From Candidatus Kapaibacterium sp. (GTDB lineage Bacteria; Bacteroidota; Ignavibacteria; Kapaibacteriales; UBA4661), in assembly GCA_025358765.1 (NCBI GenBank), contig JANYIG010000256.1:1-18457 (forward strand): a stretch of 18,457 nucleotides of DNA, read 5' to 3'. Below the pieces are notes generated by a model, which was given only the letters and a program-made list of their open reading frames with translations, searched no databases and was not told the DNA's origin. Within the stretch, counting starts at the first letter, position 1. Every line of letters begins with the position of its first letter. Below are positions 5,074 through 18,457 of this stretch, in pieces. Position numbers and translations under genes: made by a program.

Positions 5074-5383
5074 GGTTGGGTTGAGATGTTTGGAAATAGA
5101 ATGGTCGGTACGATTTTGGGCATTTGAGAGAACTCCACAACTAAATAGACTGTCCAACGAAGAGAGCCCCATGGAAGGGGGTTGCGAAGCGCTATGTTTT
5201 GTACGCTGTGAAGCTGCGACAGGGGTAAAATACATTACGCCATCGTGAATGTCAATAGAAATTTCCCATAAATAAAAAATGACAAGGTAAAGAACCAATT
5301 GACATCTTCCGATGAGAGAAATTCAAGATTTGGCGCGTCGCAGGTGATAACGCTTGCAGATGTGGCTGCCCTGATGCTCGGCG

Positions 5384-6805
5384 TTATGTTAACGCCTTCT
5401 CCAGATGGTGTGCGTATTGCATCAAGTGCATTTCGTCGAAGTGGTTTGCCTGTAATTGTATTCCTATGGGAAGACCATTGGATGCTGTTCCTGCGGGAAT
5501 GCTGATACCCGGAACGCCGCCTAAGTTTGCCGATACGGTGAAGATGTCACCCAAATACATTGCGAGCGGGTCAGAGGATTTTTCGCCAATTTTGAACGGT
5601 GGCGTGGGATACGACGGCAACGCGAACAAATCTGCTGTTTTGAACATTTGTTTGTAATCGTTGTAAATCAAGCGCCGTACTTTTAATGCCTTCGTGTAAT
5701 ACGCATCATAATAGCCGGACGACAAAACGTAGGTTCCAAGCATGATGCGGCGTTTAACTTCTGCACCAAAACCCTGCGAACGAGTTTTGATGACCATATC
5801 ATCCTCGTCATTTGTTACATCCGCCCGGAAGCCGTAGCGAACACCGTCGTACCGCGATAGGTTTGATGAGGCTTCGGCGGTGGCGATGATGTAATACGTA
5901 GGAATCAGCGCTCCAATATATTTCATTTCATGCGTGACAATCTCTGCGCCCATGCCGCGCAGCGTCCCTAACACTTTGCGGTATGCCAGCAACACGTCAT
6001 CGTCACAACCTCTAAGCTGTTCATCGGGGAGTACCGCAACCGTAAACGTTGCGGGTAGCGGAGCATTGAGTTGCGATGTTGTGTTGAGCGGCGTAAAAGG
6101 GCAACTTGTTGCATCGCGTTCGTCGTTGCCATTAATAGTATCAAAAAGCAAGGCTGCATCTGCCACTGTTGGGGCGAGCGGTCCAATCTGGTCGAGTGAC
6201 GAACCGTAGGCAACCAAGCCGTAACGCGATACACGTCCATATGTCGGTTTTAAACCCACCGCCCCACAAAATGAAGCTGGAAGCCGTACCGAGCCGCCAG
6301 TGTCCGAACCAAGCGCAGCATGGCAAAGTTCTGCCGCGACGCTTGCTGCGGCACCGCCCGATGATCCACCCGGCACATACTCCGGATTAACAGGGTTTTT
6401 GACCGCTCCATATGCAGAGTTTTCATTCGATGAACCCATGGCAAACTCATCCATGTTTGCTTTGCCAATGATGATTGCGCCCGCATTTTTCAGACGTTCC
6501 ACCACCGTTGCATCGTAGATGGGAACATATGTTTCGAGGATTTTGCTGCCACACGACGTGCGGATACCTTTGGTGTTGATATTGTCCTTTAAGGCAATAA
6601 CCATACCTTCAAGCGGGCGCGGATTTCCAGCGGAGAAGCGTGCGTCGGCTTCAGCAGCTTGAGCGCGAGCGCCAGCGGCGTTGACGGAGAGAAGGCAGTT
6701 CAGGTCTTGTTTGGCTGCAATAGTTGCAAGGAAGGTTTCAACAGCTTCGGCACACGTTGTTTTTTTTGCTTCAAGGTCGTTGCGAAACGAGATATATGAT
6801 TTCAT
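5384..6805 (-). CDS. gatA: Glutamyl-tRNA(Gln) amidotransferase subunit A (amidase signature family)
   Basis: 473 aa. Amidase signature GGSSGGAAASVAA plus the Ser-cisSer-Lys context. N-terminus and length are typical of GatA. Its ATG (6805-6803) overlaps the tatB stop in an ATGA arrangement. Confidence 0.85.
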   Translation of the reverse strand: MKSYISFRNDLEAKKTTCAEAVETFLATIAAKQDLNCLLSVNAAGARAQAAEADARFSAGNPRPLEGMVIALKDNINTKGIRTSCGSKILETYVPIYDATVVERLKNAGAIIIGKANMDEFAMGSSNENSAYGAVKNPVNPEYVPGGSSGGAAASVAAELCHAALGSDTGGSVRLPASFCGAVGLKPTYGRVSRYGLVAYGSSLDQIGPLAPTVADAALLFDTINGNDERDATSCPFTPLNTTSQLNAPLPATFTVAVLPDEQLRGCDDDVLLAYRKVLGTLRGMGAEIVTHEMKYIGALIPTYYIIATAEASSNLSRYDGVRYGFRADVTNDEDDMVIKTRSQGFGAEVKRRIMLGTYVLSSGYYDAYYTKALKVRRLIYNDYKQMFKTADLFALPSYPTPPFKIGEKSSDPLAMYLGDIFTVSANLGGVPGISIPAGTASNGLPIGIQLQANHFDEMHLMQYAHHLEKALT

Positions 6806-7269
6806 GCAGGATTCTTCGATGATGGAATGTCGTTGTTATCGTTCTGAGTAGCAGCCGCATTGCGGGCAATAGCGCCTTCTGCGGGCTGAATACGGATGGG
6901 GGTAAGGTGTTGGACTTCGGGCAGCGCCTCTGACTGCACGATATTCATGCTATCAATCGCGCTGGCACTTGCATCTGTGTATTCCCCAAGCGGCATCACG
7001 CCATCGTTTACAGGCTTATCTTCTCGCGCTGACGGCAGGTCGTCGCCCTCTTCCAACAGAGAACGCACCTGCTGAACAGGTTCATTCACGGTTGATTCAA
7101 TTTCTTCTTGCAGTGAGTTCAAATTACGCTGGAACTCCGTCTGAGCCTTGCGAAGTTGCGCCATGCCCTTGCCGAATGATTTCGCCAACTCTGGTAATTT
7201 TTTCGGTCCGAACAGCAGAACAATTGCCAGTAAAATGAAAAGCAGTTCACCGCCGCCAACGTCAAACAT
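6802..7269 (-). CDS. tatB: Twin-arginine translocase subunit TatB-like (TatA/B/E family, long form)
   Basis: 155 aa. MFDVGGGELLFILLAIVLLFGPKKLPELAKSFGKGMAQLRKA... matches the TatB N-terminus (MFDIGFSELL...GP..LP), followed by an amphipathic helix and a long acidic tail. Confidence 0.75.
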   Translation of the reverse strand: MFDVGGGELLFILLAIVLLFGPKKLPELAKSFGKGMAQLRKAQTEFQRNLNSLQEEIESTVNEPVQQVRSLLEEGDDLPSAREDKPVNDGVMPLGEYTDASASAIDSMNIVQSEALPEVQHLTPIRIQPAEGAIARNAAATQNDNNDIPSSKNPA

Positions 7270-7348
7270 AGTTTTTCAATTGACAATGAATAATGGGCAA
7301 TGATTGATAATGCCTTTGGTGTGACGCATTATGAGAATTGGAATCGGC

Positions 7349-7522
7349 TTATTTTTTGACTTCTGCTTTTTCATCTTCGTCGGCAGGCAGTGTTGAAGCT
7401 TTTTTAAATTCTTTCACGCCAGAGCCAAGCCCTTTCATCAGCTCAGGGATTTTTTTTGCACCAAAAAGCAGCACAAGAACAAGCGCGATAACGATAATTT
7501 CGGGTGTTCCGAGACCAAACAT
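7349..7522 (-). CDS. tatA: Twin-arginine translocase subunit TatA
   Basis: The tracked ORF starts at 7609 with an implausible 29-aa extension. An internal ATG at 7522 gives a classic 58-aa TatA: [42 protein letters not shown]... It has no clear Shine-Dalgarno. Confidence 0.75.
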
Positions 7523-7642
7523 GACGGTACTTTCAAAAGGTGATGAAATTGTAAAACGAGAATGGAATACGATGGCAAAGAGAGTGTACTCAAGCATTCT
7601 CTTTTGCAAAATACAAAATTTCAGGCACGTGCGAATGCTGTT

Positions 7643-8161
7643 TTATGAAGCTGGTTCGTAGTACTGATGGTTTCGCAGATATTCCAAGCGGTCTTGAAGT
7701 TGTGCAATCGGCACGAGTAACTTTTCTTTGCCCAAAATCGCATCTTCGCGGTTTTCGTAGATCATTTCTACGTCACGGCTCATCACAATGGCTTCTTCGG
7801 GGCAGGCTTCCTCGCAAAATCCGCAGAAAATGCAGCGCAGCATATTGATTTCAAACTTCACCGGATAGCGTTCTTTCTCGCGGGTAGTGGTCTCAGCAGC
7901 TTGTACTTCAATAGCAAGTGCCGGGCATACCCGTGAACACAGCCCGCATGCTACGCAGCGTTCGCCGGATTCCTCCAGCACAAGTACGGGTCGCCCGCGA
8001 TACGAGCCTTGAGGAACAAAGCGCTCTTCGGGGTACGAGCGCGTCATTTTCGGCTCAAATATATGCTTAAACGTCAGCGCCATACCCTTGGCAATTTCAG
8101 GAAGGTAAATTTTTTCCCAAAATGTCATCCGTTGTGACTCGGTGTTGTGTTTGATGTTCAT
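7643..8161 (-). CDS. nuoI: NADH-quinone oxidoreductase subunit I (2x[4Fe-4S] ferredoxin-type)
   Basis: 172 aa. Two CxxCxxCxxxCP clusters: CVACGLCSRVCP and CIFCGFCEEACP. Full-length NuoI-like architecture. Confidence 0.9.
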   Translation of the reverse strand: MNIKHNTESQRMTFWEKIYLPEIAKGMALTFKHIFEPKMTRSYPEERFVPQGSYRGRPVLVLEESGERCVACGLCSRVCPALAIEVQAAETTTREKERYPVKFEINMLRCIFCGFCEEACPEEAIVMSRDVEMIYENREDAILGKEKLLVPIAQLQDRLEYLRNHQYYEPAS

Positions 8162-8206: not shown

Positions 8207-9262
8207 TTATCGAAGAAATGCCATCACAATCGTTGTCAGAATAATATTCACCAGCGCAAGTGGCATCATTACTCGCCAGCCAAGGTTCATCAATTGGTCG
8301 TAGCGGAAACGTGGCAGCGACCATCGAACCCAAATGAACACGAAGCACATTACCGCTATTTTTGCAAAAAATGTACCGAATTGCAGTAATCCAAGCACAA
8401 TTGAGCCTTCCACAAGACCGATTGGAGCCAGCACCGATGCCGGAATTGGCAACTGCCACCCACCCAAAAACAATGTGGTTGTCATCGCTGCCGAAGCCAC
8501 CATATGCCCGTATTCTGCAAGGAAAAACATGCCGAATTTCATGCCTGAATATTCCGTATGATAGCCGCCTACAAGCTCTGGCTCGGCTTCCGGCAAGTCA
8601 AACGGAGCGCGGTTCGTCTCGGCAAAACCCGCCACAAAAAACACTATAAAACCAAGAGGCTGAAAGAAAAGATTCCATTTCAAATCGGCTTGATTTTTCA
8701 CGATGTCGTTCAAATTCAGCGAACCCGCCATCATAATCACCCCAATCACTGATAATCCCATACAAAGTTCGTAGGAAATCATCTGTGATGCCGACCGTAA
8801 GCCACCTAAGAGCGAAAATTTATTGCTGGATGACCAGCCCGCAAACGTAATCCCATAGACTGCCACCGAACCTACGCCAAACACATAGAGCAGTGCAACA
8901 TTGATGTTTGGTGCAACAGCAAGGTCAATCCGGGTGGTGCCGACCATGATGTAGTTCCCAAATGGTGTGACCGCAAAAGCCGCAACTGCCGTTGTTACAG
9001 CAATAAGTGGCGCAAAAAAGTGAAAGCCTTTATTTGCATCGGTAGGAATAATGTCTTCTTTTAAAAGCAACTTTGCCACATCAGCGAACGGTTGCAAAAT
9101 GCCAAATGGTCCCGTGCGGTTAGGACCAATCCTGTGCTGAATCCACGCAGAAACCTTGCGCTCGTAATACACGCTCACAACAGCGCCCGGTAATACCACC
9201 AAACCCAGCACCAATCCGCCTTTGAGCAGAGAAATAAGAATGAGGAGCAATAATTCAGGCAT
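8207..9262 (-). CDS. nuoH: NADH-quinone oxidoreductase subunit H (membrane subunit, ND1 homologue)
   Basis: 351 aa polytopic membrane protein. YYERKVSAWIQHRIGPNRTGPFGILQPFADVAKL is the canonical NuoH/ND1 N-terminal signature. Confidence 0.9.
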   Translation of the reverse strand: MPELLLLILISLLKGGLVLGLVVLPGAVVSVYYERKVSAWIQHRIGPNRTGPFGILQPFADVAKLLLKEDIIPTDANKGFHFFAPLIAVTTAVAAFAVTPFGNYIMVGTTRIDLAVAPNINVALLYVFGVGSVAVYGITFAGWSSSNKFSLLGGLRSASQMISYELCMGLSVIGVIMMAGSLNLNDIVKNQADLKWNLFFQPLGFIVFFVAGFAETNRAPFDLPEAEPELVGGYHTEYSGMKFGMFFLAEYGHMVASAAMTTTLFLGGWQLPIPASVLAPIGLVEGSIVLGLLQFGTFFAKIAVMCFVFIWVRWSLPRFRYDQLMNLGWRVMMPLALVNIILTTIVMAFLR

Positions 9263-9317
9263 AATCTCAGAAATGTAACGGATGAGTAAAATTCGAGTGC
9301 TTTTGTGAAATTCTCAG

Positions 9318-11216
9318 CTATTCTTTATTTTTTTTGGGATCTATCATCTCCATCAGCTTTAATCCTAACAGCCCGTCTATAGCGTTACCACCACCGTTAC
9401 TGCCTCCGATAAGTATATCGGGTATGAGTTTAATATGTCCTTTAGAGAGTTCTTCGGTAATCTTGTAACGGGTAAAGTTTTCTCCGCCTAAGGCATTTAC
9501 CGCAAGTTCATACGCTTCGGCGGTGGATTTACCGACAGCAAGGATTTTGCCTGCCTCGGCTGTACCTGTCAAAGAAATTTGTTCTGCTTGCGCTGCCGCA
9601 TTTAATTTAATAGCTTCCGATTCCGCTTGTGCTCTTGCTCTTGTGGCTTCGGCTTGGGCAAACGCTCGCATTTTTGTGGCTTCGGCTTCCGCACTTACCG
9701 CAAGTTTTACGCTCGTTGCGTCACCTTCGGCTTTTTTTACGGTTGCGTTTGCGGTACGCTCTGCAATCTCAACGCTTTGTTGAGCCTTGACAATTTCTTT
9801 TTGCATATCGGCGATTGCTGTCTCTTTTTCCATTCCTTGTCGTGTTTCCTGTGCCTGTTTTTGCGTATCATATGTCACTTTTTGTTCTTCGGCTATTTTT
9901 CGATCCGTCAAAGTTTTCATCAATGAATCGGGAGGCGCAATATCGCCAATAAGCGTATCCACGGCGTTCACGTTGTATTCATCCAATACTTTTTTAATGT
10001 GCTCCTTAGCAGATTCTTGTCTTTCTTTACGTGAGCTTAAAAACGCAATAACGTCACTGTCTTGTGCAGAATTACGGAAGTAATTTCCAATCGTCGGTTC
10101 TAATACCTGAGAGACAAGGTTGACCATATTTCCAAATCGTGCAATGACTTTCGGAGCTTCAGTGGTTGGTACGTGAATAATTTGCGCCACGTCAAGATTG
10201 AAGGGGAAGCCGTCTTTGGAGCGCACGGTAATAGTCGAGAGGTTTTTATCAAGATTATGAGCTTCGCTGCGTGCTGATGCCCAATTGAGAACAAGATTTG
10301 TCGTCGGCACCAATTCAACTTTCATAATGTATTTGTTTATGGGATATTTCCCAGGACCAATGGGTTCAAGCCAAACCCCCTTAAATCCCTTTTCGACAAT
10401 ACTTCCATGCTTAAATTCGGTGCCTGTCAAATCGTTTCCCTCTTGACCGATATAGGATATAACAACTCCAACAAATCCAATCGGAATTTCTGTCATTGGA
10501 ATCTCCTCGACTTGCACAGCCCAAGGATTCAGATTGTACGAACCCGCTAAAATTACCTGAGGTTGTAAACCCCTATTCCCGTTATTTTTAAGGAAAATGT
10601 CAAAGTTCTGAAAGTTGTTATGTCCATCAATCAATTCACCCGCTATTTGACCCGCCTCAATCGGCAAACCGTCTAAGGTAGTAATAATACCGACCATACT
10701 TTCTTTAATACGGATCATTTCCGTGACCGAAACCTGGAAGAGCATGGTGTTGATACGATATGAACCAGCAGTGATATACGCTGTTTGTCTGCCTCGTTGT
10801 CCGCCATTATTCAGAAATTTTTCCGCATCCTGAAAATTATCGCATTCAGCACGTTGTCCTAAAATGTTTCCTGTTGGAATTTCAGCGCCGTCTTTTGCTA
10901 AGACCAAGCCAATTTTTCCCTCAGGGATCACCGTAAAACTTTGCATGGTAACATCATATTGCCAAAACCATTTCCCAAAATACAAACCCGGAGCAAGCGT
11001 TTTTGCCTGAAACCCAGCTTCGCCCCGTGTTGCTATGATGCGCCCGTCCGGTAATTCTTTATGCTCGCCGAACAATACAAACTTTTTTGTCACCAATCCG
11101 GTTTTGTCTTCAGGTACTATAACTACCCCAAATAAAAACCGAAGAACATATTTGTAAAGCGCAATACTTACTATCAAAAGAATTGCCCACCAATACGATA
11201 AAAGAAAGGTTTCCAT
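9318..11216 (-). CDS. Flotillin-family (SPFH/band-7) membrane scaffold protein, YqiK/FloT-like
   Basis: 632 aa. N-terminal TM helix followed by an SPFH domain. The C-terminal Ala/Glu-rich coiled coil (AEAEATKMRAFAQAEATRARAQAESEAIKLNAAAQAEQ) and its terminal tail are typical of bacterial flotillins. Confidence 0.85.
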   Translation of the reverse strand: METFLLSYWWAILLIVSIALYKYVLRFLFGVVIVPEDKTGLVTKKFVLFGEHKELPDGRIIATRGEAGFQAKTLAPGLYFGKWFWQYDVTMQSFTVIPEGKIGLVLAKDGAEIPTGNILGQRAECDNFQDAEKFLNNGGQRGRQTAYITAGSYRINTMLFQVSVTEMIRIKESMVGIITTLDGLPIEAGQIAGELIDGHNNFQNFDIFLKNNGNRGLQPQVILAGSYNLNPWAVQVEEIPMTEIPIGFVGVVISYIGQEGNDLTGTEFKHGSIVEKGFKGVWLEPIGPGKYPINKYIMKVELVPTTNLVLNWASARSEAHNLDKNLSTITVRSKDGFPFNLDVAQIIHVPTTEAPKVIARFGNMVNLVSQVLEPTIGNYFRNSAQDSDVIAFLSSRKERQESAKEHIKKVLDEYNVNAVDTLIGDIAPPDSLMKTLTDRKIAEEQKVTYDTQKQAQETRQGMEKETAIADMQKEIVKAQQSVEIAERTANATVKKAEGDATSVKLAVSAEAEATKMRAFAQAEATRARAQAESEAIKLNAAAQAEQISLTGTAEAGKILAVGKSTAEAYELAVNALGGENFTRYKITEELSKGHIKLIPDILIGGSNGGGNAIDGLLGLKLMEMIDPKKNKE

Positions 11217-11252
11217 AATGATATAATAGTTCCGACATTTTTAGCTCATTTG

Positions 11253-11281
11253 CAACGCATCAAATCTTACAACGCATCAAA
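11253..11281. repeat. Perfect 12-bp tandem direct repeat CAACGCATCAAA x2 (5-bp spacer) spanning the DUF2628 stop codon
   Basis: Copies lie at 11253-11264 and 11270-11281, 17 bp start-to-start. On the minus strand the upstream copy encodes the C-terminal F-D-A-L of the DUF2628 protein. The downstream copy lies just after the stop, 37-48 nt upstream of the flotillin ATG. Confidence 0.8.
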
Positions 11282-11794
11282 AAGCGTGTCCGCATCGAAT
11301 GTGTTTATATCGCCTACGTGTCCTGACAATATTTTGAACACCACAGCATCAGCCGCACTGCCAGCAATACCAAGCACTATCACCCACAACAACGATGTGC
11401 CGCCGATTTGACGTAGCGTTGGCGCAAGCATGAGCGGATCGTCTGTACCCATAGTGTTGGCAACATCGCCCACTTTCCGGGTCGCATACCGATAATATAC
11501 CCAATTGCCAAAAATGCCAATCACAATAGACATAAGCAGTGTTGAACTGCGATGGCTGCTATGCGGAGCACTCAAAAAAAGAATATACTTTATTACACGT
11601 GCCGAGCCGAATACGAGTAGTGCCGGAATGTACATTTTACGGTACATCATCCAGTACGCCGAGAAAAAGAATGCCGACCAATTCCAGCTTATCTTCTCGC
11701 TGGAGTTCTCGAATACATCCCACTTTTGCAAATAATGCTCTGAGCGCTCGCCCACAAAAGAAGCAAGGTTTTCATCGCGGATTATGAGTGACAT
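11267..11794 (-). CDS. DUF2628-family small membrane protein
   Basis: The KWDVF...SWNWSAFFFSAYWMMYRKMY motif is characteristic of DUF2628, and two or three predicted TM helices follow. The tracked ORF starts at TTG 11812. The ATG at 11794 is preceded by GGAGGA (+ strand TCCTCC 11799-11804, 4-nt spacer), so start is set there (176 aa). Confidence 0.65.
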   Translation of the reverse strand: MSLIIRDENLASFVGERSEHYLQKWDVFENSSEKISWNWSAFFFSAYWMMYRKMYIPALLVFGSARVIKYILFLSAPHSSHRSSTLLMSIVIGIFGNWVYYRYATRKVGDVANTMGTDDPLMLAPTLRQIGGTSLLWVIVLGIAGSAADAVVFKILSGHVGDINTFDADTLFDAL

Positions 11795-11831
11795 GAAATC
11801 CTCCAGATGCAAGGGTGTACAGTAAATGAAG

Positions 11832-13598
11832 TTAATTTGGCTTCAACGTATGTGATTCGTATTCATACATCGCAAATGGCTCGCTCTCAGCCCCGCCAAA
11901 CACAACACCTTTGCGCTCGTCGAGCAATTCATATGTGAGTCCTGCAAACGCCGGAATAGTATCCACAATTTCCTCAAACACATCTTCCGACACGCGGTAA
12001 CGCCATTTATTTTTGTCTGCACCCATCGCTAGCGCTAATGCTGTGATCGTACCCCAGCTTTGACGGGCACTACGGCGTTCGCCATGCGTCCAACGGTCGT
12101 TTGGAGCGCCAAATTTGTCTAATCGGCTCATTTTTAATCCCATGCGCCGCTCGTTTTCTACCGTGATGATAGACGGGGAGAGGTGTTGCACGCGGCTCTC
12201 GAAGTTTGTGTAGGTGCCTTCCAATTCAGCGTAAGTTGCCGCGGCAAAGACTACGTGCGCCTTTGCGGTTATTGGCGTGTGATTATACGCATGAACGATG
12301 ATGAGCTGGAGCTTGCTTAAAACCTCGTCGGGCAGATGCAAACGGTCATCTTCCATGACGTACAGCACTTTGACGGAGCCGGAATTGAGTTTGGCAAGAA
12401 TAGCATCCAGATTGGAAGCGGCTTTTAGCCCCAATGCCGTTGCGCCTGTTGAATTTGGTGATTTATCGCTGTGGCGCAATTTCACATCACCAAAAGACGG
12501 GTCTTCATATTTTAAAAATTCTACATTGCTTGTGCCAAGAACATCCTTCGCAAACCGTGCAAGCGCGTAATTGTCCTCGTTTGTGGCATGTGCAGAGCCA
12601 AGAACAATAATCTCATTGCCGCTGAATTGCTTTAATTGCTCGGCTGCAAAGGCAGTAGCTTCTTGCCATTCAACCTCCGTTGATGTAACGTTTTTGCGGA
12701 TAAGCGGTTTTTGAATGCGGTTCGCGTTCACGTAGTCATACTGTGTGAGCCGCCCGTAGTCGCACATCCAAAATTCATTCACTTCAAGATTCGTATTTGG
12801 CTCAAGGCGCAAAATTTCGTTGTTGCGAACGCCTGCTTGAACATTGCAGCCACGCGCACAGCCAGTGCAAATCGTTTCGTTAAAGCTCATATCCCACACG
12901 CGAGCTTTGAAGCGGAAGTCACGGCTCGTGAGCGCCCCAACGGGACAGATTTCGATAACGTTCATGGAATATGGGCTATCGAACTCCGTGCCGGGGAAGG
13001 TTTCGATAGTCGTGTGATCGCCGCGTTGTACGAACGTCAACACGGGCTGTTCTGCCTCTTCGGTTGCGTAGCGGATGCAGCGCGAACACGAGATGCAGCG
13101 CTCACCGTCGAACAATACATTCGGACCAAGCGGGACACGTTTGTCTTTGTGATTTTTTGTCTCCTCGAAGCGGCTCTCGCCCTTAGAGTGACGGAAGCTG
13201 TACTCTTGTAATTTACATTGTCCTGCTTCGTCGCATATCGGGCAATCGAGCGGGTGATTGATGAGCAAAAACTCCATGACAGCTTCTTGTGCGGATTCTA
13301 CCTTTTTGTCAGCAATACGAACGTGCATCCCCTCCGACACGGGTGTTGCACAGGCGATGGAGAGTTTGGGCATGTACAAAATAACAGGATTACCCTGTTC
13401 ATCGAGCGCAGGTGTGCGATCAGGATTCATCTTGGGCATTCCAACATCGACAAGGCACATGCGGCAGTTTCCGGCGACCGAAAGCGATGGATGCCAACAA
13501 AAATGGGGTACGTCAAACCCGTTCTCCAATGCTGCTTGAATAATCGTTTGCCCGTCTTTGGCTTCGATGGCGCGACCGTCAATAGTTACACGCGGCAT
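11832..13598 (-). CDS. nuoG: NADH-quinone oxidoreductase subunit G (short form; 2Fe-2S + 4Fe-4S N-terminal domain)
   Basis: MPRVTIDGRAIEAKDGQTIIQAALENGFDVPHFCWHPSLSVAGNCRMCLVDVG is the NuoG N-terminal [2Fe-2S] signature. It is followed by a His-ligated [4Fe-4S] (HPLDCPICDEAGQC) and a [4Fe-4S] CxxCxxC motif. The tracked ORF's 68-aa upstream extension is non-homologous, so start is set at ATG 13598. The 588-aa product is shorter than a typical NuoG. Confidence 0.8.
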   Translation of the reverse strand: MPRVTIDGRAIEAKDGQTIIQAALENGFDVPHFCWHPSLSVAGNCRMCLVDVGMPKMNPDRTPALDEQGNPVILYMPKLSIACATPVSEGMHVRIADKKVESAQEAVMEFLLINHPLDCPICDEAGQCKLQEYSFRHSKGESRFEETKNHKDKRVPLGPNVLFDGERCISCSRCIRYATEEAEQPVLTFVQRGDHTTIETFPGTEFDSPYSMNVIEICPVGALTSRDFRFKARVWDMSFNETICTGCARGCNVQAGVRNNEILRLEPNTNLEVNEFWMCDYGRLTQYDYVNANRIQKPLIRKNVTSTEVEWQEATAFAAEQLKQFSGNEIIVLGSAHATNEDNYALARFAKDVLGTSNVEFLKYEDPSFGDVKLRHSDKSPNSTGATALGLKAASNLDAILAKLNSGSVKVLYVMEDDRLHLPDEVLSKLQLIIVHAYNHTPITAKAHVVFAAATYAELEGTYTNFESRVQHLSPSIITVENERRMGLKMSRLDKFGAPNDRWTHGERRSARQSWGTITALALAMGADKNKWRYRVSEDVFEEIVDTIPAFAGLTYELLDERKGVVFGGAESEPFAMYEYESHTLKPN

Positions 13599-13614
13599 AA
13601 ATTTTTTCCAAGTG

Positions 13615-13650
13615 TGAGAGTATGTTGAGAGTATTACGATGTGAGAGTGT
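13615..13650. repeat. Three direct copies of TGAGAGT(A/G)T immediately upstream of the nuoG start
   Basis: Copies at 13615-13623, 13626-13634 and 13642-13650. On the minus strand they read ACTCTCA and lie 17-52 nt upstream of the nuoG ATG. No Shine-Dalgarno is present. Confidence 0.6.
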
Positions 13651-14046
13651 TTGCGTGTTTGAAGTGCAAACCTACTCGAAGATACCAGATTCAGCGCAAA
13701 TAGGCAAAAAAAGTTCCACACAGGTTCCGTGTATCTCGCATGATTGCTGCCTAAGATGGTAATTGTTAAAACGGTGTTAAGACCGCTAAAAACATGCTCC
13801 ACAAGATAGTGAATATTGTATTTTACAAAAAATTTATCTACTTTAGTTTAATAGTTAATCTTCCATACTACTCGCCGAAGCACCCATCTGCAACGACGTA
13901 GCACCAAACTCCAGACACCAAACTTTATCATTTTATCATCCCAAACTCAACAATGACGCTCTCTGCAACCATATTCTCCGCAATATTTTCTACAATTTCC
14001 GACAGTAACTCTTTCTATTTGTTTACCATTTTTAAAGGTTTTGTTC

Positions 14047-14175
14047 ATGCGTAATGTCCCTACGCTTGCTGTGCGGCGTGGTTTCCGAACCGCCCTGTAC
14101 GCAATGCTACCAACGACCCTTTTTTTTAGTTTGTTTTGTAGTCTTTTGCTTCTGAGCAATGTCTCAAGTAATGCT
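14047..14175 (+). other. Predicted Sec signal peptide of the S8 peptidase
   Basis: MRNVPTLAVRRGFRTALYAMLPTTLFFSLFCSLLLLSNVSSNA|QS. It has a positive n-region, a hydrophobic h-region and an AxA-like site (SNA). An alternative start at Met20 is possible. Confidence 0.5.
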
Positions 14176-17100
14176 CAGAGTATATCATCAAGTACATCTT
14201 CAAGCCCAAAACTTGGACGAGCGCAATTTATAGCCGCGAACCCACGTCCGTCGCAGGATAGCTATTTTATAACGGTTCCGGGCAAACGGCAGCCTGACGG
14301 AACCTACTCGCTTGGCTCGGTTACGGAAGTCAAACGTCCTGCAAAAGGAACCTACGTCAAAGGTTCTGTCATTCTGAAAACGAAACAGCTTTATCCAGTA
14401 GATACAAAGTCGAGCAAAAATGTTGCAAGCCTCCAATCCTCTGTATTGATGACCACATTGGATGGTTTCACCGTAAAAAACATTCGCCCCGTATTCCCCG
14501 ACCTCAATGCTGGCAAGCGCTTGAGCGGGATTGCCTCGGACAATAACGGCATGGGTAACGTCTATGAAGTGCGTTACGATGCGCCCACTGACCCCTTCGA
14601 TGTGTGCCGCGAACTCAGCATGAATCCTGAAGTGGAGTATGCTGAACCGTGTTATATCTACAAACAACAAGCCGTACCCGGCGCACCGAACGATTCCCTT
14701 TACGCCAAACAGTATGCGTGGCAACGGGTGCAGGCGGAAGCCGCATGGGATATGGTGAAAGGAGAGACCACTGTCCTTATCGCTATTGTGGATAGCGGTG
14801 TGGATTGGGAACATGAAGACCTTGCCGCGAACATCTGGACAAATCCGGGCGAATCGGGCTTGGACAAAAATGGCAAAGACAAACGTTTTAATGGTATAGA
14901 TGATGACGGCAACGGCAAAATAGACGACTGGCATGGTTGGGATTTTATCGGTGCGCCAGACGATGCCGATCCCTATTTCCGCGAGGACAACGACCCGAAA
15001 CCCCGCTTCGACGAGCACAATGCCGATCTTTTCGACACACAAACGCACGGGACGCACGTAGCAGGCATAGCCGGTGCGGTGGCGAATAACGGTAAAGGCG
15101 GAGCCGGTGCGAGCTTTAACAATTGTAAAATACTGCCGCTCAAGGCAGGCTCTGATAAAGACGACCAAGGCTCAATTTTTTCCTCTGGCGCATATGCCGC
15201 CATCCTCTATGCCGCACAAATGGGTGCGAAGGTGGTCAATAATAGTTGGGGCGGTTCCGGTGGAGGAAGTCAATTTCAGCAAGATGTTATTAACACGGCA
15301 ACCGCAATGGGACTGTTGGTGGTTTCTTCGGCTGGTAATGGTGATGCGAATAACAATAACGACCTGATGGATTTTGTGTATTACCCAGCTTCGTATGATA
15401 ATGTTTTGTCCGTGGCAGCAAGCGATGTCAACGACGTAGCTGTGAGTAAACTTAATGACAATTATTTTGGTACAACACTTGGCATAAAAACAACAGTATT
15501 TGCGCCGGGTTCTAATATTTTGAGTACGTTTATTGGTAATCGGTATGGTATTTTTAGCGGTACGTCTATGTCATCACCGCTTGTAACAGGCATTGCAGGG
15601 CTTGTACGAAAGGTGCATCCGGAATGGACACCACGCCAAGTGTTGCAGCAAATTCGCTCTACGTCGGACAATGTTTTACGTCTTGGTGCATTCCAAAACG
15701 CGACCAACACCAACAGTGACCGCCCAACCCAGCAGTATGGGCGCATCAATGCGTTTCGTGCGGTTACGGTGAATAGTACGTTGAATTCCGGCGATAATGT
15801 CGTGCCGGGCATCAGCTTTACCCGTGCCTTCACGACGGCGCAAGACGGCATTGTGAACGCATATCAACCGCTCCGCTTAATTTTGGCAGTGCAAAACTTT
15901 CTCTCGAATGCGTCCGATGTGAGTGTTACGCTCACGCCGATTACGGCGAGCAATGCCGTTGCGTTGCAGCCGACGGCTTCGATTGGTACGCTCAACACAC
16001 TTCAAGAAAAACCCGCTGTATTCGACATTCAACTTCAACCGGGTGCTGCACGAACGGGCAATGTGGATTTTATGGTGACCTACCGTAGTGGCTCTGGCGC
16101 TACTGCTTACGTTAATTACGAGCGTATTCGCGTTCCGTATAACATTTCTGCCTCACGGACTCAACAGCTTATAACGTCAGCGTTAGTGGATTTTGGGTCA
16201 ACATCGCCATCGTCGCCAGTGACGAGTACAGTGAGCTTCCGAAACATCGGAGCACAAAGCATAACGGTTTCGACAGCAACTGTCACTGGGACAAATGCTG
16301 GTGATTTTTCGTTTGTAAGCCCGTTCAGCCCCATAACGGTGGCTGCCAACGGCACAGCCAGTGCTACGCTTCGCTTTACGCCGAGTAGCACAGCCAGTAC
16401 GACCGCTCGTGCGGCAACCCTTGACATCACGGCACTTTCAAGCACGGCGGCAACCATTGGTGGGATAGCCGTTGCATCGGGTTACGGTTTTGAAAGTGTT
16501 CGCGGAACATATTCAGAAATTACGGGCGGCGTGGTACTCGGCAAAGGAATAGTAGTAGATGACGAAGAATATGCGTTGGAGTTCGGTTTTCCATTCTTGT
16601 TTGCCGGCACGACCTACACAAAATTGACGATTAACTCGAATGGTTTTGTGGCATTTGCGCCGAGCGGAACGACGGTCGGGCAGCAGCAAAATATTCAAGC
16701 ACCTTTGAGCGATGTGTTCTCTGCTGGCGGCATGGTTTCAGCGTTTTCGAGCGACCTTCAGCTTTCGGCAAGCGGCGAAATTCAGGCAAAATCGGAAGGC
16801 ACAACGCCGAACCGCGTCTTTACAGTGCAATGGAAAAATTGTACATTTTTTGATGAAACGTTGGGAGCGCAGGGCGGTCCGTCGCCGAATGGAAACCTCA
16901 ACTTCCAGATTCGTATTTATGAAGGCTCGAACAATATCGAATTCCGCTATGGTACAATGACCTACGGTGCTTCGGCTCGTGTTCGCACGGACGAATTTAT
17001 TGGTCCGGGCGTTGGGCAGGTGGGTTTGCGAAGCTCTTCCACCAATGATTTTTTGAACCGACGCGTGACTCCGCTTGATCGCAATACATGGGATGGTTCG

Positions 17101-18457
17101 GTTGACGGCACGGCAAATACTGACCCGTGTGTTATTCAAGGGACACTCGCTCCGGCATCAGGGCTGATTTATCGCTGGCGACCACAAGACGCATCGGCAA
17201 CGAACGTGGCTACGTCGTTCCAGCGCAGCATACCGCTTGCAGGTGTTTTTCGGACGGGTGGCTTTTTGTCAACAGCCGTCACGGGGCTGAATTTCGGAAC
17301 CGTGTCGAGTACAACGTCGTCAATACTTCCAGTTCTCGTTACGAATTCCGGGACGGCTCCCGTTACGGTGAAGGCACTCACGATTGTCACATCGCCGACG
17401 CTGAGTGCAACCGAATACCAGCTTGCCGATCCGCTTTCAACGCCGCTCCCGTTCACGATTCAGCCGGGTGGCACGGCAACGTTCCGTGTGAAATTTACAC
17501 CTTCAACAGAGGCTTCGCGTCAAACAACAGGGCGTGGTCTGGCGGATGGGACATATACTATCGCCTCACGTCCGGCAGCATTGCAGATTGAAAGTGACGC
17601 GCCGACGCTCAGTATTCCCCTCAATGGCGTTGGAACGAATCCTGCACCCGCAACCCCAGCACGGGCATTGAATATCGGATTCACTGGCAGTGCGGATTTT
17701 AATCCCGCAACACCGATTTATAGCCGTTTCGACCGCATCCCACAAAATAGCTCGGGGCAAATCAATCACGTAGTCATTGGATCGGAACGTTTTGCTACGG
17801 ACATCGAACTCCGCAGCCGTGGCACACAAGCATTGACAATAACAGGTGCGACGATTGTTGGCACAGGCGCTTCAGAGTTTACCATTCAGGAGCCGAAATT
17901 TCCTGTCACGATTGACGTTGGGCGGTCTGTACTAATGAAAATCCGCTTTGCGCCTCGTGTTGCAGGCGAAAAACTCGTATATGTCACGTTCACCGGCGAC
18001 CTCCAGAAGCAACAAATCTTGGGTTTTGGAAGCAACGCCGCGCTGCCTCGCTTTATCGCTGTAACACCTCCAAACGATGGCAGCACGACGATTCCGGCTC
18101 CAGAAGCAGTGTTGGACATCTTCCCAGTTCCTGTACCCTCGGCAATCGTTGGAACATCGGAGCGCTTTACTATTCGCTTGCAGCACAGTACAAGTGCCAC
18201 GGCAGATGCTACGATTCGCGGCGTGACGTTTAGCGGTGCTGCTCAGGCGGAGTTTGTGGTTGACACAAAAAGCTCTCTGGCAGTTAAATTTCCGCTTACT
18301 CTCACTCCTGGGCAATCGCGGGTAATTCCCATTTTGTTCACACCGCAATCTGTTGGCGAGCGCAAAGCAGTGCTGACACTTTTGCCAGACGGCGACCCAA
18401 GCACTGAAAGCGTGAGCCTAACAGGTACAGGGACAAAAAATCAAGATATTGCTCTGG
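14047..18457 (+). CDS. Secreted multidomain subtilisin-like serine peptidase (MEROPS S8), 3'-partial and continuing beyond the window
   Basis: Frame (14047 mod 3) is open with no stop for 4411 nt to the window end. The N-terminus has an RR n-region, a hydrophobic core and SNA|QS. The catalytic triad sits in the canonical S8 order: Asp in AIVDSGVD (14791-14793), His in HGTHVAG (15055-15057), Ser in GTSMSSP (15565-15567), with the NNSWGG oxyanion Asn. A Bacteroidota-type Ca-loop is present: NGIDDDGNGKIDDWHGWDF. The gene is absent from the supplied ORF track because no stop occurs in the window. Confidence 0.85.
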   Translation, partial: MRNVPTLAVRRGFRTALYAMLPTTLFFSLFCSLLLLSNVSSNAQSISSSTSSSPKLGRAQFIAANPRPSQDSYFITVPGKRQPDGTYSLGSVTEVKRPAKGTYVKGSVILKTKQLYPVDTKSSKNVASLQSSVLMTTLDGFTVKNIRPVFPDLNAGKRLSGIASDNNGMGNVYEVRYDAPTDPFDVCRELSMNPEVEYAEPCYIYKQQAVPGAPNDSLYAKQYAWQRVQAEAAWDMVKGETTVLIAIVDSGVDWEHEDLAANIWTNPGESGLDKNGKDKRFNGIDDDGNGKIDDWHGWDFIGAPDDADPYFREDNDPKPRFDEHNADLFDTQTHGTHVAGIAGAVANNGKGGAGASFNNCKILPLKAGSDKDDQGSIFSSGAYAAILYAAQMGAKVVNNSWGGSGGGSQFQQDVINTATAMGLLVVSSAGNGDANNNNDLMDFVYYPASYDNVLSVAASDVNDVAVSKLNDNYFGTTLGIKTTVFAPGSNILSTFIGNRYGIFSGTSMSSPLVTGIAGLVRKVHPEWTPRQVLQQIRSTSDNVLRLGAFQNATNTNSDRPTQQYGRINAFRAVTVNSTLNSGDNVVPGISFTRAFTTAQDGIVNAYQPLRLILAVQNFLSNASDVSVTLTPITASNAVALQPTASIGTLNTLQEKPAVFDIQLQPGAARTGNVDFMVTYRSGSGATAYVNYERIRVPYNISASRTQQLITSALVDFGSTSPSSPVTSTVSFRNIGAQSITVSTATVTGTNAGDFSFVSPFSPITVAANGTASATLRFTPSSTASTTARAATLDITALSSTAATIGGIAVASGYGFESVRGTYSEITGGVVLGKGIVVDDEEYALEFGFPFLFAGTTYTKLTINSNGFVAFAPSGTTVGQQQNIQAPLSDVFSAGGMVSAFSSDLQLSASGEIQAKSEGTTPNRVFTVQWKNCTFFDETLGAQGGPSPNGNLNFQIRIYEGSNNIEFRYGTMTYGASARVRTDEFIGPGVGQVGLRSSSTNDFLNRRVTPLDRNTWDGSVDGTANTDPCVIQGTLAPASGLIYRWRPQDASATNVATSFQRSIPLAGVFRTGGFLSTAVTGLNFGTVSSTTSSILPVLVTNSGTAPVTVKALTIVTSPTLSATEYQLADPLSTPLPFTIQPGGTATFRVKFTPSTEASRQTTGRGLADGTYTIASRPAALQIESDAPTLSIPLNGVGTNPAPATPARALNIGFTGSADFNPATPIYSRFDRIPQNSSGQINHVVIGSERFATDIELRSRGTQALTITGATIVGTGASEFTIQEPKFPVTIDVGRSVLMKIRFAPRVAGEKLVYVTFTGDLQKQQILGFGSNAALPRFIAVTPPNDGSTTIPAPEAVLDIFPVPVPSAIVGTSERFTIRLQHSTSATADATIRGVTFSGAAQAEFVVDTKSSLAVKFPLTLTPGQSRVIPILFTPQSVGERKAVLTLLPDGDPSTESVSLTGTGTKNQDIAL
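16180..16478 (+). other. Ig-like beta-sandwich domain (ASH / choice-of-anchor-D-like), copy 1, within the S8 peptidase
   Basis: LVDFGSTSPSSPVTSTVSFRNIGAQSITVSTATVTG...FSFVSPFSPITVAANGTASATLRFTPSS...AATLDITALSS. The F-G-V-G-S...N-G...L-I...PG-S..V-F-P...G...A-L-I pattern is shared with the copies at 17240-18440. Confidence 0.45.
16479..17185 (+). other. NIDO-like (nidogen N-terminal-like) domain candidate within the S8 peptidase
   Basis: EEYALEFGFPFLFAGTTYTKLTINSNGFVAF...IQAPLSDVFSAGG...NLNFQIRIYEGSNNIEFRYG resembles the NIDO consensus (LPFxFPFYGxxYxxLYVNNNGxISF ... IAPFWADVD ... TFQAVLxTDGxxSFAIFxY). Recalled from memory, not searched. Confidence 0.35.
17240..18440 (+). other. Three further tandem Ig-like (ASH / choice-of-anchor-D-like) domains at the C-terminal end of the visible S8 peptidase
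   Basis: Approximate spans 17240-17640, 17650-18035 and 18040-18440. Each has the form ...FG.V..G.S...L.V.N.G.A.V.V.A.TIV...EF.........P..I.PG.S..I.V.F.P...G.R.A.L.L... ending in a G-x-G motif. Confidence 0.45.

Follow-up and report, generated by a model that had tools for sequence, protein, structure and literature searches.

A clade-wide DUF2628 gene and a species-level SPFH/Band_7 gene between nuoG and nuoH in a Candidatus Kapaibacterium genome

The stretch of DNA analyzed here, termed "the window," comprises 18,457 nucleotides of a Candidatus Kapaibacterium contig. Its minus strand carries, in the direction of reading, nuoG (positions 11832 to 13598), a gene for a DUF2628 membrane protein (11267 to 11794), a gene for an SPFH/Band_7 protein (9318 to 11216), nuoH (8207 to 9262), and nuoI (7643 to 8161), with gaps of 37, 50, 55, and 45 bp along the string. 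This order had been claimed in the original prediction and was confirmed by profile matches and by three independent assemblies, all of one species: the window itself, L036 (GCA_043724355.1, 99.7% nucleotide identity to the window), and L037 (the Logan assembly of SRR22198311, 99.9% identity). Gene order was unchanged and the junctions were identical in the three, which were 4 to 20 SNPs apart. Such a recurrence leaves an almost negligible probability that a metagenome mis-assembly fused two contigs, one with SPFH and one with nuo genes, although the composition of SPFH is that of an outlier, as such a fusion might produce.

The nuoG gene encodes a short form of 588 amino acids (aa) with the full Pfam domain set (Fer2_4, NADH-G_4Fe-4S_3, Fer4_Nqo3, Molybdop_Fe4S4, and Molybdopterin), and its score against TIGR01973 was 455 bits, just below the cut-off of 470. 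NuoH (351 aa) matched PF00146 with 411 bits and NF004741 with 355 bits (cut-off, 305), and NuoI (172 aa) matched TIGR01971 with 131 bits (cut-off, 113). The two additional genes had been described as inserted into a canonical nuo operon, which is not the situation in the window. Here, nuoG heads a detached nuoG-H-I cluster and is preceded by a divergently oriented gene for an S8 peptidase. The intergenic region between these two genes (13599 to 14046, not assigned to a strand) is the presumed promoter region of the string. It contains one TAGGTTTG 69 to 76 nt upstream of nuoG, without conservation in relatives. The Bacteroidetes-type −7 motif TAnnTTTG, of which one copy precedes nuoG, was dropped as a candidate, with 14 occurrences in the window versus 13.7 expected by chance and no copy ahead of this gene in five relatives.

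The lengths of the gaps had been given as 19, 50, and 55 bp. The latter two values stood, and the first applies if DUF2628 starts with the TTG at 11812; the N termini of the orthologues favor the ATG at 11794, and the nuoG-DUF2628 gap is then 37 bp long (11795 to 11831). This gap is without structure (z, −0.1), the DUF2628-SPFH gap (11217 to 11266) and the SPFH-nuoH gap (9263 to 9317) are likewise unstructured, and none of these minus-strand gaps folded better than shuffled sequences (other z values, +0.3 to +1.5). A simple scan for terminator-like sites found none in any gap of the string, in agreement with the earlier statement that no terminator-like hairpin is visible there, and a search against Rfam gave no match in the window. 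The short, terminator-free gaps make a single transcript plausible, so that DUF2628 and SPFH may be cotranscribed with nuoG, nuoH, and nuoI.

Alternatively, the string may be composed of at least three merely co-directional transcription units, with one promoter in the 3' half of DUF2628 driving SPFH and another in the 3' end of SPFH driving nuoH-nuoI. Sigma-70-type sequences with 10 of 12 matching positions are indeed located on the minus strand inside DUF2628 (11520 to 11492) and inside the 3' end of SPFH (9572 to 9544), and the long structured spacer preceding nuoH in relatives suggests that nuoH may have had its own start. The total of 14 such matches, however, was that expected from shuffled sequences (10.8 ± 3.6), for a consensus that may not be the one used by Kapaibacteria, and the upstream genes end without a terminator-like site, which makes separate units rather unlikely.

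The product of the DUF2628 gene is a protein of 175 aa with about four helical membrane segments. Its match to PF10947 (49.7 to 50 bits, cut-off 23, E value 4e-13) was above the gathering score in the HMM search, so that the predicted name is correct, and a WNWxAF...YRKMY motif was invariant across the DUF2628 alignment. The AlphaFold2 (AF2) model was all-helical with a pLDDT of 86, and comparison of this model gave no informative fold match. At 0.517, the GC3 of the gene is typical of the window.

Orthologues of DUF2628 with 47 to 58% identity were present between nuoG and nuoH in 7 of the 7 lineages examined (L038, L040, L042, L044, L124, L125, and the window), the NuoG of the window being 72 to 75% identical to those of the DUF2628-bearing relatives. 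These loci were monophyletic in a neighbor-joining tree of NuoG, with L008, a locus without DUF2628, as the sister; outside this clade, 17 Kapaibacteria/Ignavibacteria loci had nuoG directly beside nuoH, as judged from tblastn matches less than 230 bp apart. The dN/dS ratio of DUF2628 was about 0.07 to 0.24, at a dS above 1, and its position was kept while flanking synteny, in L042 and L125 even the adjacency to nuoI, was lost. DUF2628 has long occupied the nuoG-nuoH spacer throughout this clade. Other small genes have been gained and lost on either side of it among the relatives. Between DUF2628 and nuoH, these relatives have a spacer of 163 to 224 bp rich in REP-like hairpins (z, −3.2 to −6.1), which is replaced in the window by the 55-bp SPFH-nuoH gap.

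Between the two genes, DUF2628 is more promising than SPFH for a role tied to Complex I. It could serve as an accessory subunit, or as an assembly factor, that is specific to the Complex I of this clade and acts at the NuoH end of the membrane arm; SPFH would then be a later passenger without relevance. The persistence of its position in all seven lineages despite the changes around it, the purifying selection acting on the gene, and the confident prediction of a helical membrane protein agree with this possibility, as do the non-nuo open reading frames known from other nuo/nqo clusters. The nuo/nqo cluster of Paracoccus denitrificans contains unidentified reading frames (URFs) among the Complex I genes, one of them between nqo3 and nqo8, and the nqo operons of Rhodothermus marinus contain extra non-nuo genes; a paper on Paracoccus that was examined for the URFs does not describe them. 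There as in the window, genes without relation to the 14 core subunits interrupt the series of Complex I genes, in the same orientation and set off by short gaps, and some of these interspersed open reading frames are conserved within a lineage. The window differs from both clusters in the nature of the inserts, which encode an SPFH protein and a DUF2628 membrane protein, in the host cluster, which consists of nuoG-H-I alone and is separated from the remaining nuo genes, and in the distribution of the inserts, one being clade-wide and the other at the species level. The role as accessory subunit is nevertheless regarded as a tentative possibility. Conservation in one clade may reflect inertia because deletions beside essential genes are risky, the long hairpin-rich spacer parts DUF2628 from nuoH in the relatives, and an association with Complex I is absent from the wider DUF2628 family. 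Among distant DUF2628 genes, 0 of 79 loci had an SPFH or nuo neighbor according to tblastn, and 0 of 43 flanking open reading frames were Band_7, NfeD, or nuo genes according to Pfam. A literature search found no paper on the function of DUF2628.

The second insert encodes a protein of 632 aa and is specific to the species of the window. Residues 244 to 458 matched PF01145 (Band_7) with 84.4 bits (cut-off, 23.6). An N-terminal transmembrane helix, with a hydrophobic stretch at residues 8 to 30, is followed by about three serial beta-repeats of approximately 75 aa each, the SPFH domain, and a long coiled coil. The AF2 model placed helices at residues 2 to 29, 430 to 504, and 511 to 592, the latter two at low pLDDT, and the part with the SPFH domain and the coiled coil was of low confidence (pLDDT, 33 to 65). 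The beta-repeats resemble vault repeats, and in the model the N-terminal repeats are predicted to fold like the repeats in major vault protein (MVP), giving an MVP-like architecture in which a series of vault-type beta-repeats precedes an SPFH-like shoulder and then a long helix. The Pfam models Vault and MVP_shoulder had no match in this protein or in six long relatives.

The designation "flotillin" in the original prediction was right as far as the SPFH/Band_7 superfamily is concerned and too specific beyond it. No match to Flot (PF15975) was obtained even at an E value of ≤10, whereas the positive control YqiK from Escherichia coli scored 139.8 bits; the match to the NCBIfam model FloT reached 22 bits versus a cut-off of 700 and came from the coiled-coil stretch alone, as did an hhalign alignment to YqiK (18% probability). 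The best PDB match by sequence was QmcA, with a marginal E value of 0.004. The protein shares with YqiK of E. coli and FloT of Bacillus subtilis the N-terminal anchor, the Band_7/SPFH domain, and an Ala/Glu-rich coiled coil; it differs from them by the missing Flot domain, by about 210 extra beta-repeat residues ahead of the SPFH domain, and by its gene neighborhood. As had been predicted, a gene for an NfeD/YqiJ-type partner was not adjacent to SPFH in the window, nor was it at the six orthologue loci. JGI and NCBI label the orthologues as "YqiK" or "flotillin family."

MVP-like proteins that carry a band-7 domain, near residues 509 to 598, have been described from the bacteria Saprospira, Microscilla, and Enhygromyxa (bioRxiv 10.1101/872010; Daly et al. 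2013, PMC3762200). Compared to these proteins and to the major vault protein, the SPFH protein of the window contains about three repeats only and possesses an N-terminal transmembrane helix, and its length is below that of the bacterial proteins. Other SPFH proteins have been tied to respiration, namely HflK-HflC of E. coli (PMC12005517) and the mitochondrial prohibitins and SLP-2. All of these are, like the protein in the window, SPFH-domain membrane scaffolds, and their loss affects the function of the respiratory chain (PMC12005517). Their links to respiration are indirect or posttranslational, not via membership in an operon with Complex I genes, and their sequence similarity to the SPFH protein of the window is marginal.

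An SPFH gene between nuoG and nuoH was confined to the species of the window (the window, L036, and L037). It was found at 0 of the 6 other loci of the DUF2628 clade and at 0 of 17 related nuoG-nuoH loci. The insertion could be older and more widespread than one species because the sampled NuoG identities skip the range between 75% and 99.6%. In six other genomes, orthologues 86 to 92% identical to the SPFH protein were solitary in unrelated contexts, with an upstream region of 96 to 332 bp and, at 0 of 6 loci, a nuo or DUF2628 neighbor. A 180-aa gene upstream of SPFH in L002 was considered as a DUF2628 analogue and was unrelated when compared. The family is 85 to 92% identical across classes of Bacteroidota, and its synonymous sites are saturated; a recent horizontal sweep as the cause of this hyperconservation was rejected because four-fold sites were only 28 to 42% identical. 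The GC3 of SPFH in the window, 0.385, is an outlier compared to 0.45 to 0.54 in the window, and in five of the six other genomes the GC3 of the gene tracks that of the host. Judged from base composition, this suggests a donor of lower GC content or another locus with different codon usage; codon bias instead of a foreign origin could also be responsible. The PADLOC defense models had no match to the DUF2628 or the SPFH protein, and no paper on an SPFH gene within a nuo cluster was found in a literature search.

At the junction of DUF2628 and SPFH (11253 to 11281, minus strand), two direct copies of TTTGATGCGTTG span the DUF2628 stop codon, the first copy being the last four codons of the gene. 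The period is 17, and 14 of 15 positions are identical when the repeat is extended. A close 12-mer repeat is expected 0.058 times per window and occurred at least once in 20 of 500 Markov shuffles. The 12-bp tandem repeat in the original prediction is therefore real, albeit as two copies separated by a 5-nt spacer and not as a strict tandem array. A regulatory role found no support, this junction being known from one species only, and the repeat probably reflects a minor duplication at the point where the insert joins. A third 12-mer copy at the far end of the SPFH insert or flanking direct or inverted repeats were not present, and the search for a donor, a mobile-element gene, a target-site duplication, or terminal repeats yielded none. 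Alignments of the 50- and 55-bp gaps with the DUF2628-nuoH spacers of the relatives, and of the SPFH upstream region with those of the six orthologues, gave no usable homology.

DUF2628 and SPFH had been seen as one module inserted between nuoG and nuoH. A survey of the relatives, as had been proposed, revealed conservation of the arrangement for DUF2628 and its absence for SPFH; one gene is clade-wide and the other arrived later. A dedicated scaffold module, coexpressed with NuoG, NuoH, and NuoI and organizing a membrane microdomain for assembly or stability of Complex I, would be in line with the location on one strand, the gaps of 37 to 55 bp without terminator-like sites, and the respiratory links of HflK-HflC (PMC12005517) and of the mitochondrial prohibitins and SLP-2. 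The two genes differ in history and composition, the SPFH orthologues in the six other genomes are never beside DUF2628 or nuo genes, the relatives in the DUF2628 clade have no SPFH at the nuoG-nuoH locus, and the distant DUF2628 genes are without Band_7, NfeD, or nuo neighbors, all of which renders such a module improbable.

The reading considered reasonably probable is that of two separate gene gains in the nuoG-nuoH spacer, with a read-through coexpression of SPFH and the Complex I genes that is incidental and with DUF2628 being likelier linked to Complex I. In the ancestor of one clade, a DUF2628 gene became established just downstream of nuoG, and every sampled descendant has retained it at this place under purifying selection. 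An SPFH gene that is extremely conserved in Bacteroidota then landed, as a complete copy, in the DUF2628-nuoH spacer in the lineage of the window only. Because its 50- and 55-bp flanks are unstructured and terminator-like sites are missing, read-through transcription from the nuoG promoter now most likely covers SPFH along with DUF2628, nuoH, and nuoI. By analogy to its family, the product may be anchored by its single N-terminal helix and assemble into a large oligomeric membrane cage, which would be extended by the vault-like repeats. The coexpression with the genes of Complex I most likely follows from the landing site and not from a conserved functional coupling. The link between scaffold and Complex I probably arose by chance from the local order of the genes, since the genes arrived separately and only the position of DUF2628 was kept in relatives. 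A combined scenario, in which the Complex I of the clade has DUF2628 as a lineage-specific supernumerary subunit or as an assembly factor and a membrane-anchored, vault-like SPFH cage was recruited into the same expression unit in the species of the window, appears highly improbable; if true, it would be an operon-encoded bacterial counterpart of the link of prohibitins and SLP-2 to the respiratory chain.

If the link between SPFH and Complex I were true, the support of respiratory complexes by SPFH cages could be studied in a bacterial system that is defined genetically; with the adjacency confined to a single sampled species, it is a gene-order curiosity on present evidence. DUF2628, held between nuoG and nuoH across a clade of Kapaibacteria, is a testable candidate for a lineage-specific accessory protein of Complex I, and its placement provides the first clue from gene context to a family of no known function. 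The unusually conserved SPFH family with vault-like repeats, in turn, is relevant to how SPFH cages and vaults are connected in evolution.

The string of co-directional genes on the minus strand starts with nuoG (11832-13598), followed by a DUF2628 gene (11267-11794), an SPFH/Band_7 gene (9318-11216), nuoH (8207-9262), nuoI (7643-8161), and a small tatA (7348-7521), and ends downstream with a tatB-like gene, gatA, and a fadD-like ligase gene. The position of the SPFH and DUF2628 genes between nuoG and nuoH was confirmed when order and spacing were read. A mis-assembly is excluded because the identical arrangement recurs, with 99.7-99.9% nucleotide identity, in two further assemblies of this species, L036 (GCA_043724355.1) and L037 (Logan assembly of SRR22198311). 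Searches with the NuoG protein returned MAGs of Candidatus Kapaibacterium, Kapabacteria, and Ignavibacteria with identities of 45-65%. What looks like a 373-bp gap separating nuoI from the 155-aa TatA/B-family gene contains the 57-aa TatA-type ORF at 7348-7521, which was below the ORF length cut-off used; a TatA_B_E gene is called at the matching place in L036.

Upstream of nuoG and divergent from it, an S8 peptidase gene of more than 1470 aa occupies 13957-18456 on the plus strand and runs off the end of the window. The nuoG-H-I genes are therefore a detached cluster here and not the middle part of a 14-gene nuo operon, and the assumed insertion into a canonical nuo operon had to be abandoned. 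The S8 subtilase is very large, with Ig-like/ASH/Cep192-type domains, and its orthologue at the same position in the related locus L038 (1-5514) shares 47% identity and possesses in addition a Por_Secre_tail domain. A 19-nt inverted pair (TTTTGCAAAATACAAAATT and AATATTGTATTTTACAAAA, 17/19 matches) at 7602-7620 and 13812-13830 flanks the whole block from nuoG to nuoI; it is AT-rich and of marginal significance, and the relatives show no clear conservation of it.

The gaps along the string are 37 bp between nuoG and DUF2628, 50 bp between DUF2628 and SPFH, 55 bp between SPFH and nuoH, and 45 bp between nuoH and nuoI. This agrees with the 50 and 55 bp of the original prediction; the 19 bp given there for the first gap result only from an upstream TTG start, and the N-termini of the orthologues favor the ATG at 11794. 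As had been noted, the gaps are free of terminator-like hairpins: the consensus scan detected no terminator-like site in any of them, and they folded no better than shuffled sequence. Sigma-70-like motifs with 10/12 matches were located once inside DUF2628 and once inside the 3' end of SPFH, with a scan total at chance level, and the Bacteroidetes TAnnTTTG motif was uninformative here. Because SPFH has apparently lost the long upstream region that it possesses at other loci and no terminator precedes or follows the gene, its transcription probably relies on read-through from the nuoG promoter, which would place nuoH and nuoI now downstream of SPFH in this transcript.

DUF2628 is located between nuoG and nuoH in every lineage looked up, namely, the window and the related loci L038, L040, L042, L044, L124, and L125. 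A neighbor-joining tree of NuoG groups these loci in a single clade, whose NuoG proteins are 72-75% identical to that of the window, and L008, a locus without DUF2628, is the sister of this clade. The close DUF2628 orthologues (n = 14) are about 174 aa in length and 47-58% identical. No SPFH gene is present at the nuoG-nuoH locus of any of the six relatives, so the survey of neighborhoods found a conserved position for DUF2628 and none for SPFH. A coiled-coil ORF of 88-95 aa resides between nuoG and DUF2628 in L040 (2295-2582) and L124 (3600-3866), with 77% identity, and a 210-aa outer-membrane beta-barrel-like ORF at the same junction in L042 (7332-7964).

At 17 Kapaibacteria/Ignavibacteria loci possessing both genes, the tblastn matches for nuoG and nuoH were less than 230 bp apart with nuoI next, and neither DUF2628 nor SPFH was there. 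One of these loci, L008, contains between nuoH and nuoI a gene (6319-7182) whose 287-aa product, judged by its sequence, resembles a short-chain dehydrogenase, which indicates that the Kapaibacteria nuoG-H-I cluster can take up foreign genes at more than a single junction.

DUF2628 evolves with a non-synonymous rate two to four times faster than that of NuoG and NuoH, and its dN/dS of 0.07-0.24, at dS above 1, indicates purifying selection. Neither nuo genes nor this SPFH family were ever found beside distant DUF2628 genes (79 metagenome loci, 25-36% identity), and Pfam scans of 43 ORFs flanking distant DUF2628 genes revealed neither a recurring partner nor any Band_7, NfeD, or Complex I family. 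The AF2 model of DUF2628 is confident (pLDDT 86) and all-helical with about four membrane helices and had no informative structure match; a literature search found no functional study.

The DUF2628-nuoH spacer is 163-224 bp long in all six relatives (8523-8746 in L038, 3159-3364 in L040, 8526-8739 in L042, 1621-1789 in L044, 4413-4596 in L124, and 7553-7715 in L125), and each contains a long, very stable hairpin (z of -3.2 to -6.1). The hairpins are composed of lineage-specific palindromic units, either CACGAAT arrays or CACAGACA...TGTCTGTG. These units look like REP-type elements because one of them recurs elsewhere in L040, at 5090-5109, and the hairpins may punctuate the transcript. In the window they are gone, and SPFH is flanked by two short unstructured gaps.

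The SPFH protein had been named a "flotillin," which could not be maintained. No Flot domain was detected at E<=10 (E. coli YqiK, 140 bits), the FloT model scored 22 bits compared to a cut-off of 700, and hhalign aligned the protein with YqiK at 18% probability, restricted to the coiled coil. Among solved structures, QmcA is the closest in sequence (E 0.004), and these searches classify the protein as an SPFH protein rather than a canonical flotillin. Among the relatives, proteins extend to 1800 aa, with as many as 12 repeats and a VWA domain at the C-terminus, and the order repeats-SPFH-long helix in this family is the one seen in the major vault protein (MVP); Pfam Vault models had no match among the long relatives. 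MVP-like proteins that carry a band-7 domain are already described from bacteria (bioRxiv 10.1101/872010), but those are longer and were identified through their sequence similarity to MVP. An exact 15-bp direct repeat with 33-bp spacing at 9641-9688 is in the part encoding the Ala/Glu-rich coiled coil and was rejected as a regulatory element, since it mirrors a repeat in the protein sequence (AQAEA...).

Orthologues with 85-92% identity number in the thousands across the Bacteroidota in the broad sense, among them Chryseolinea, Saprospiraceae, Cyclobacteriaceae, Flavobacteriales, "Parabacteroides sp.," Fluviicola, and Ignavibacteriaceae. For the window protein and its orthologues in the loci L001-L007, the pairwise identity remains at this level whatever taxa are compared, star-like across the Bacteroidota classes, and residues 321-400 are nearly invariant. 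Such similarity might be that of a recently spread gene; this was rejected because identity at four-fold degenerate sites, which are saturated, is only 28-42%. Together with a GC3 of 0.22-0.65 that follows the host, this argues for an old family of membrane proteins of about 630 aa under unusually strong purifying selection.

In six orthologue genomes inspected, the gene is solitary, in unrelated contexts with 96-332 bp of upstream intergenic DNA and never with a nuo, DUF2628, or NfeD neighbor; in the window, too, an NfeD-type partner is absent, as had been noted. GC3 tracks the host in five of six other genomes. In "Parabacteroides sp. FAFU027" (L002, 8001-9941), SPFH has a GC3 of 0.56 compared to 0.38 in the neighboring genes, a second case of foreign-looking composition. 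In the window, SPFH is the sole compositional outlier (GC3 of 0.385 versus 0.45-0.54 in all eleven other genes), which fits an acquisition from a lower-GC source or, alternatively, codon bias. No donor, mobile-element gene, or flanking repeats for an SPFH insertion were found.

At the end of DUF2628, the 12-bp sequence TTTGATGCGTTG occurs twice (0.058 expected per window by chance; 14/15 identical when extended). Both predicted copies are real but not strictly tandem, being separated by 5 nt, and the first forms the last four DUF2628 codons. It may be conjectured that this duplication at the stop codon is a scar of the SPFH insertion. The simplest history would comprise two separate events: DUF2628 would have been gained a single time in the nuoG-nuoH spacer, at the base of the clade, and kept there, and SPFH would later have entered the DUF2628-nuoH spacer in the lineage of the window only.

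For SPFH, which is at this place in one sampled species, these comparisons do not support a conserved scaffold module with a hard-wired coupling to Complex I; nothing in the comparative data links this protein to Complex I. DUF2628 is the better candidate for such a link, although its clade-wide position, the only evidence, suggests the coupling no more than weakly. The arrangement, in which accessory genes have been inserted into a nuo cluster, is of a kind already known: non-nuo ORFs reside inside nuo/nqo clusters, such as the Paracoccus URFs and in Rhodothermus. In the literature searched, no SPFH gene within a nuo cluster was described. Links of SPFH proteins to respiration are documented but indirect: E. 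coli HflK-HflC acts via IspG and ubiquinone (PMC12005517), and mitochondrial prohibitins are another example. The conserved position of DUF2628 and the hyper-conserved, vault-repeat-bearing SPFH family merit attention above the module originally proposed.
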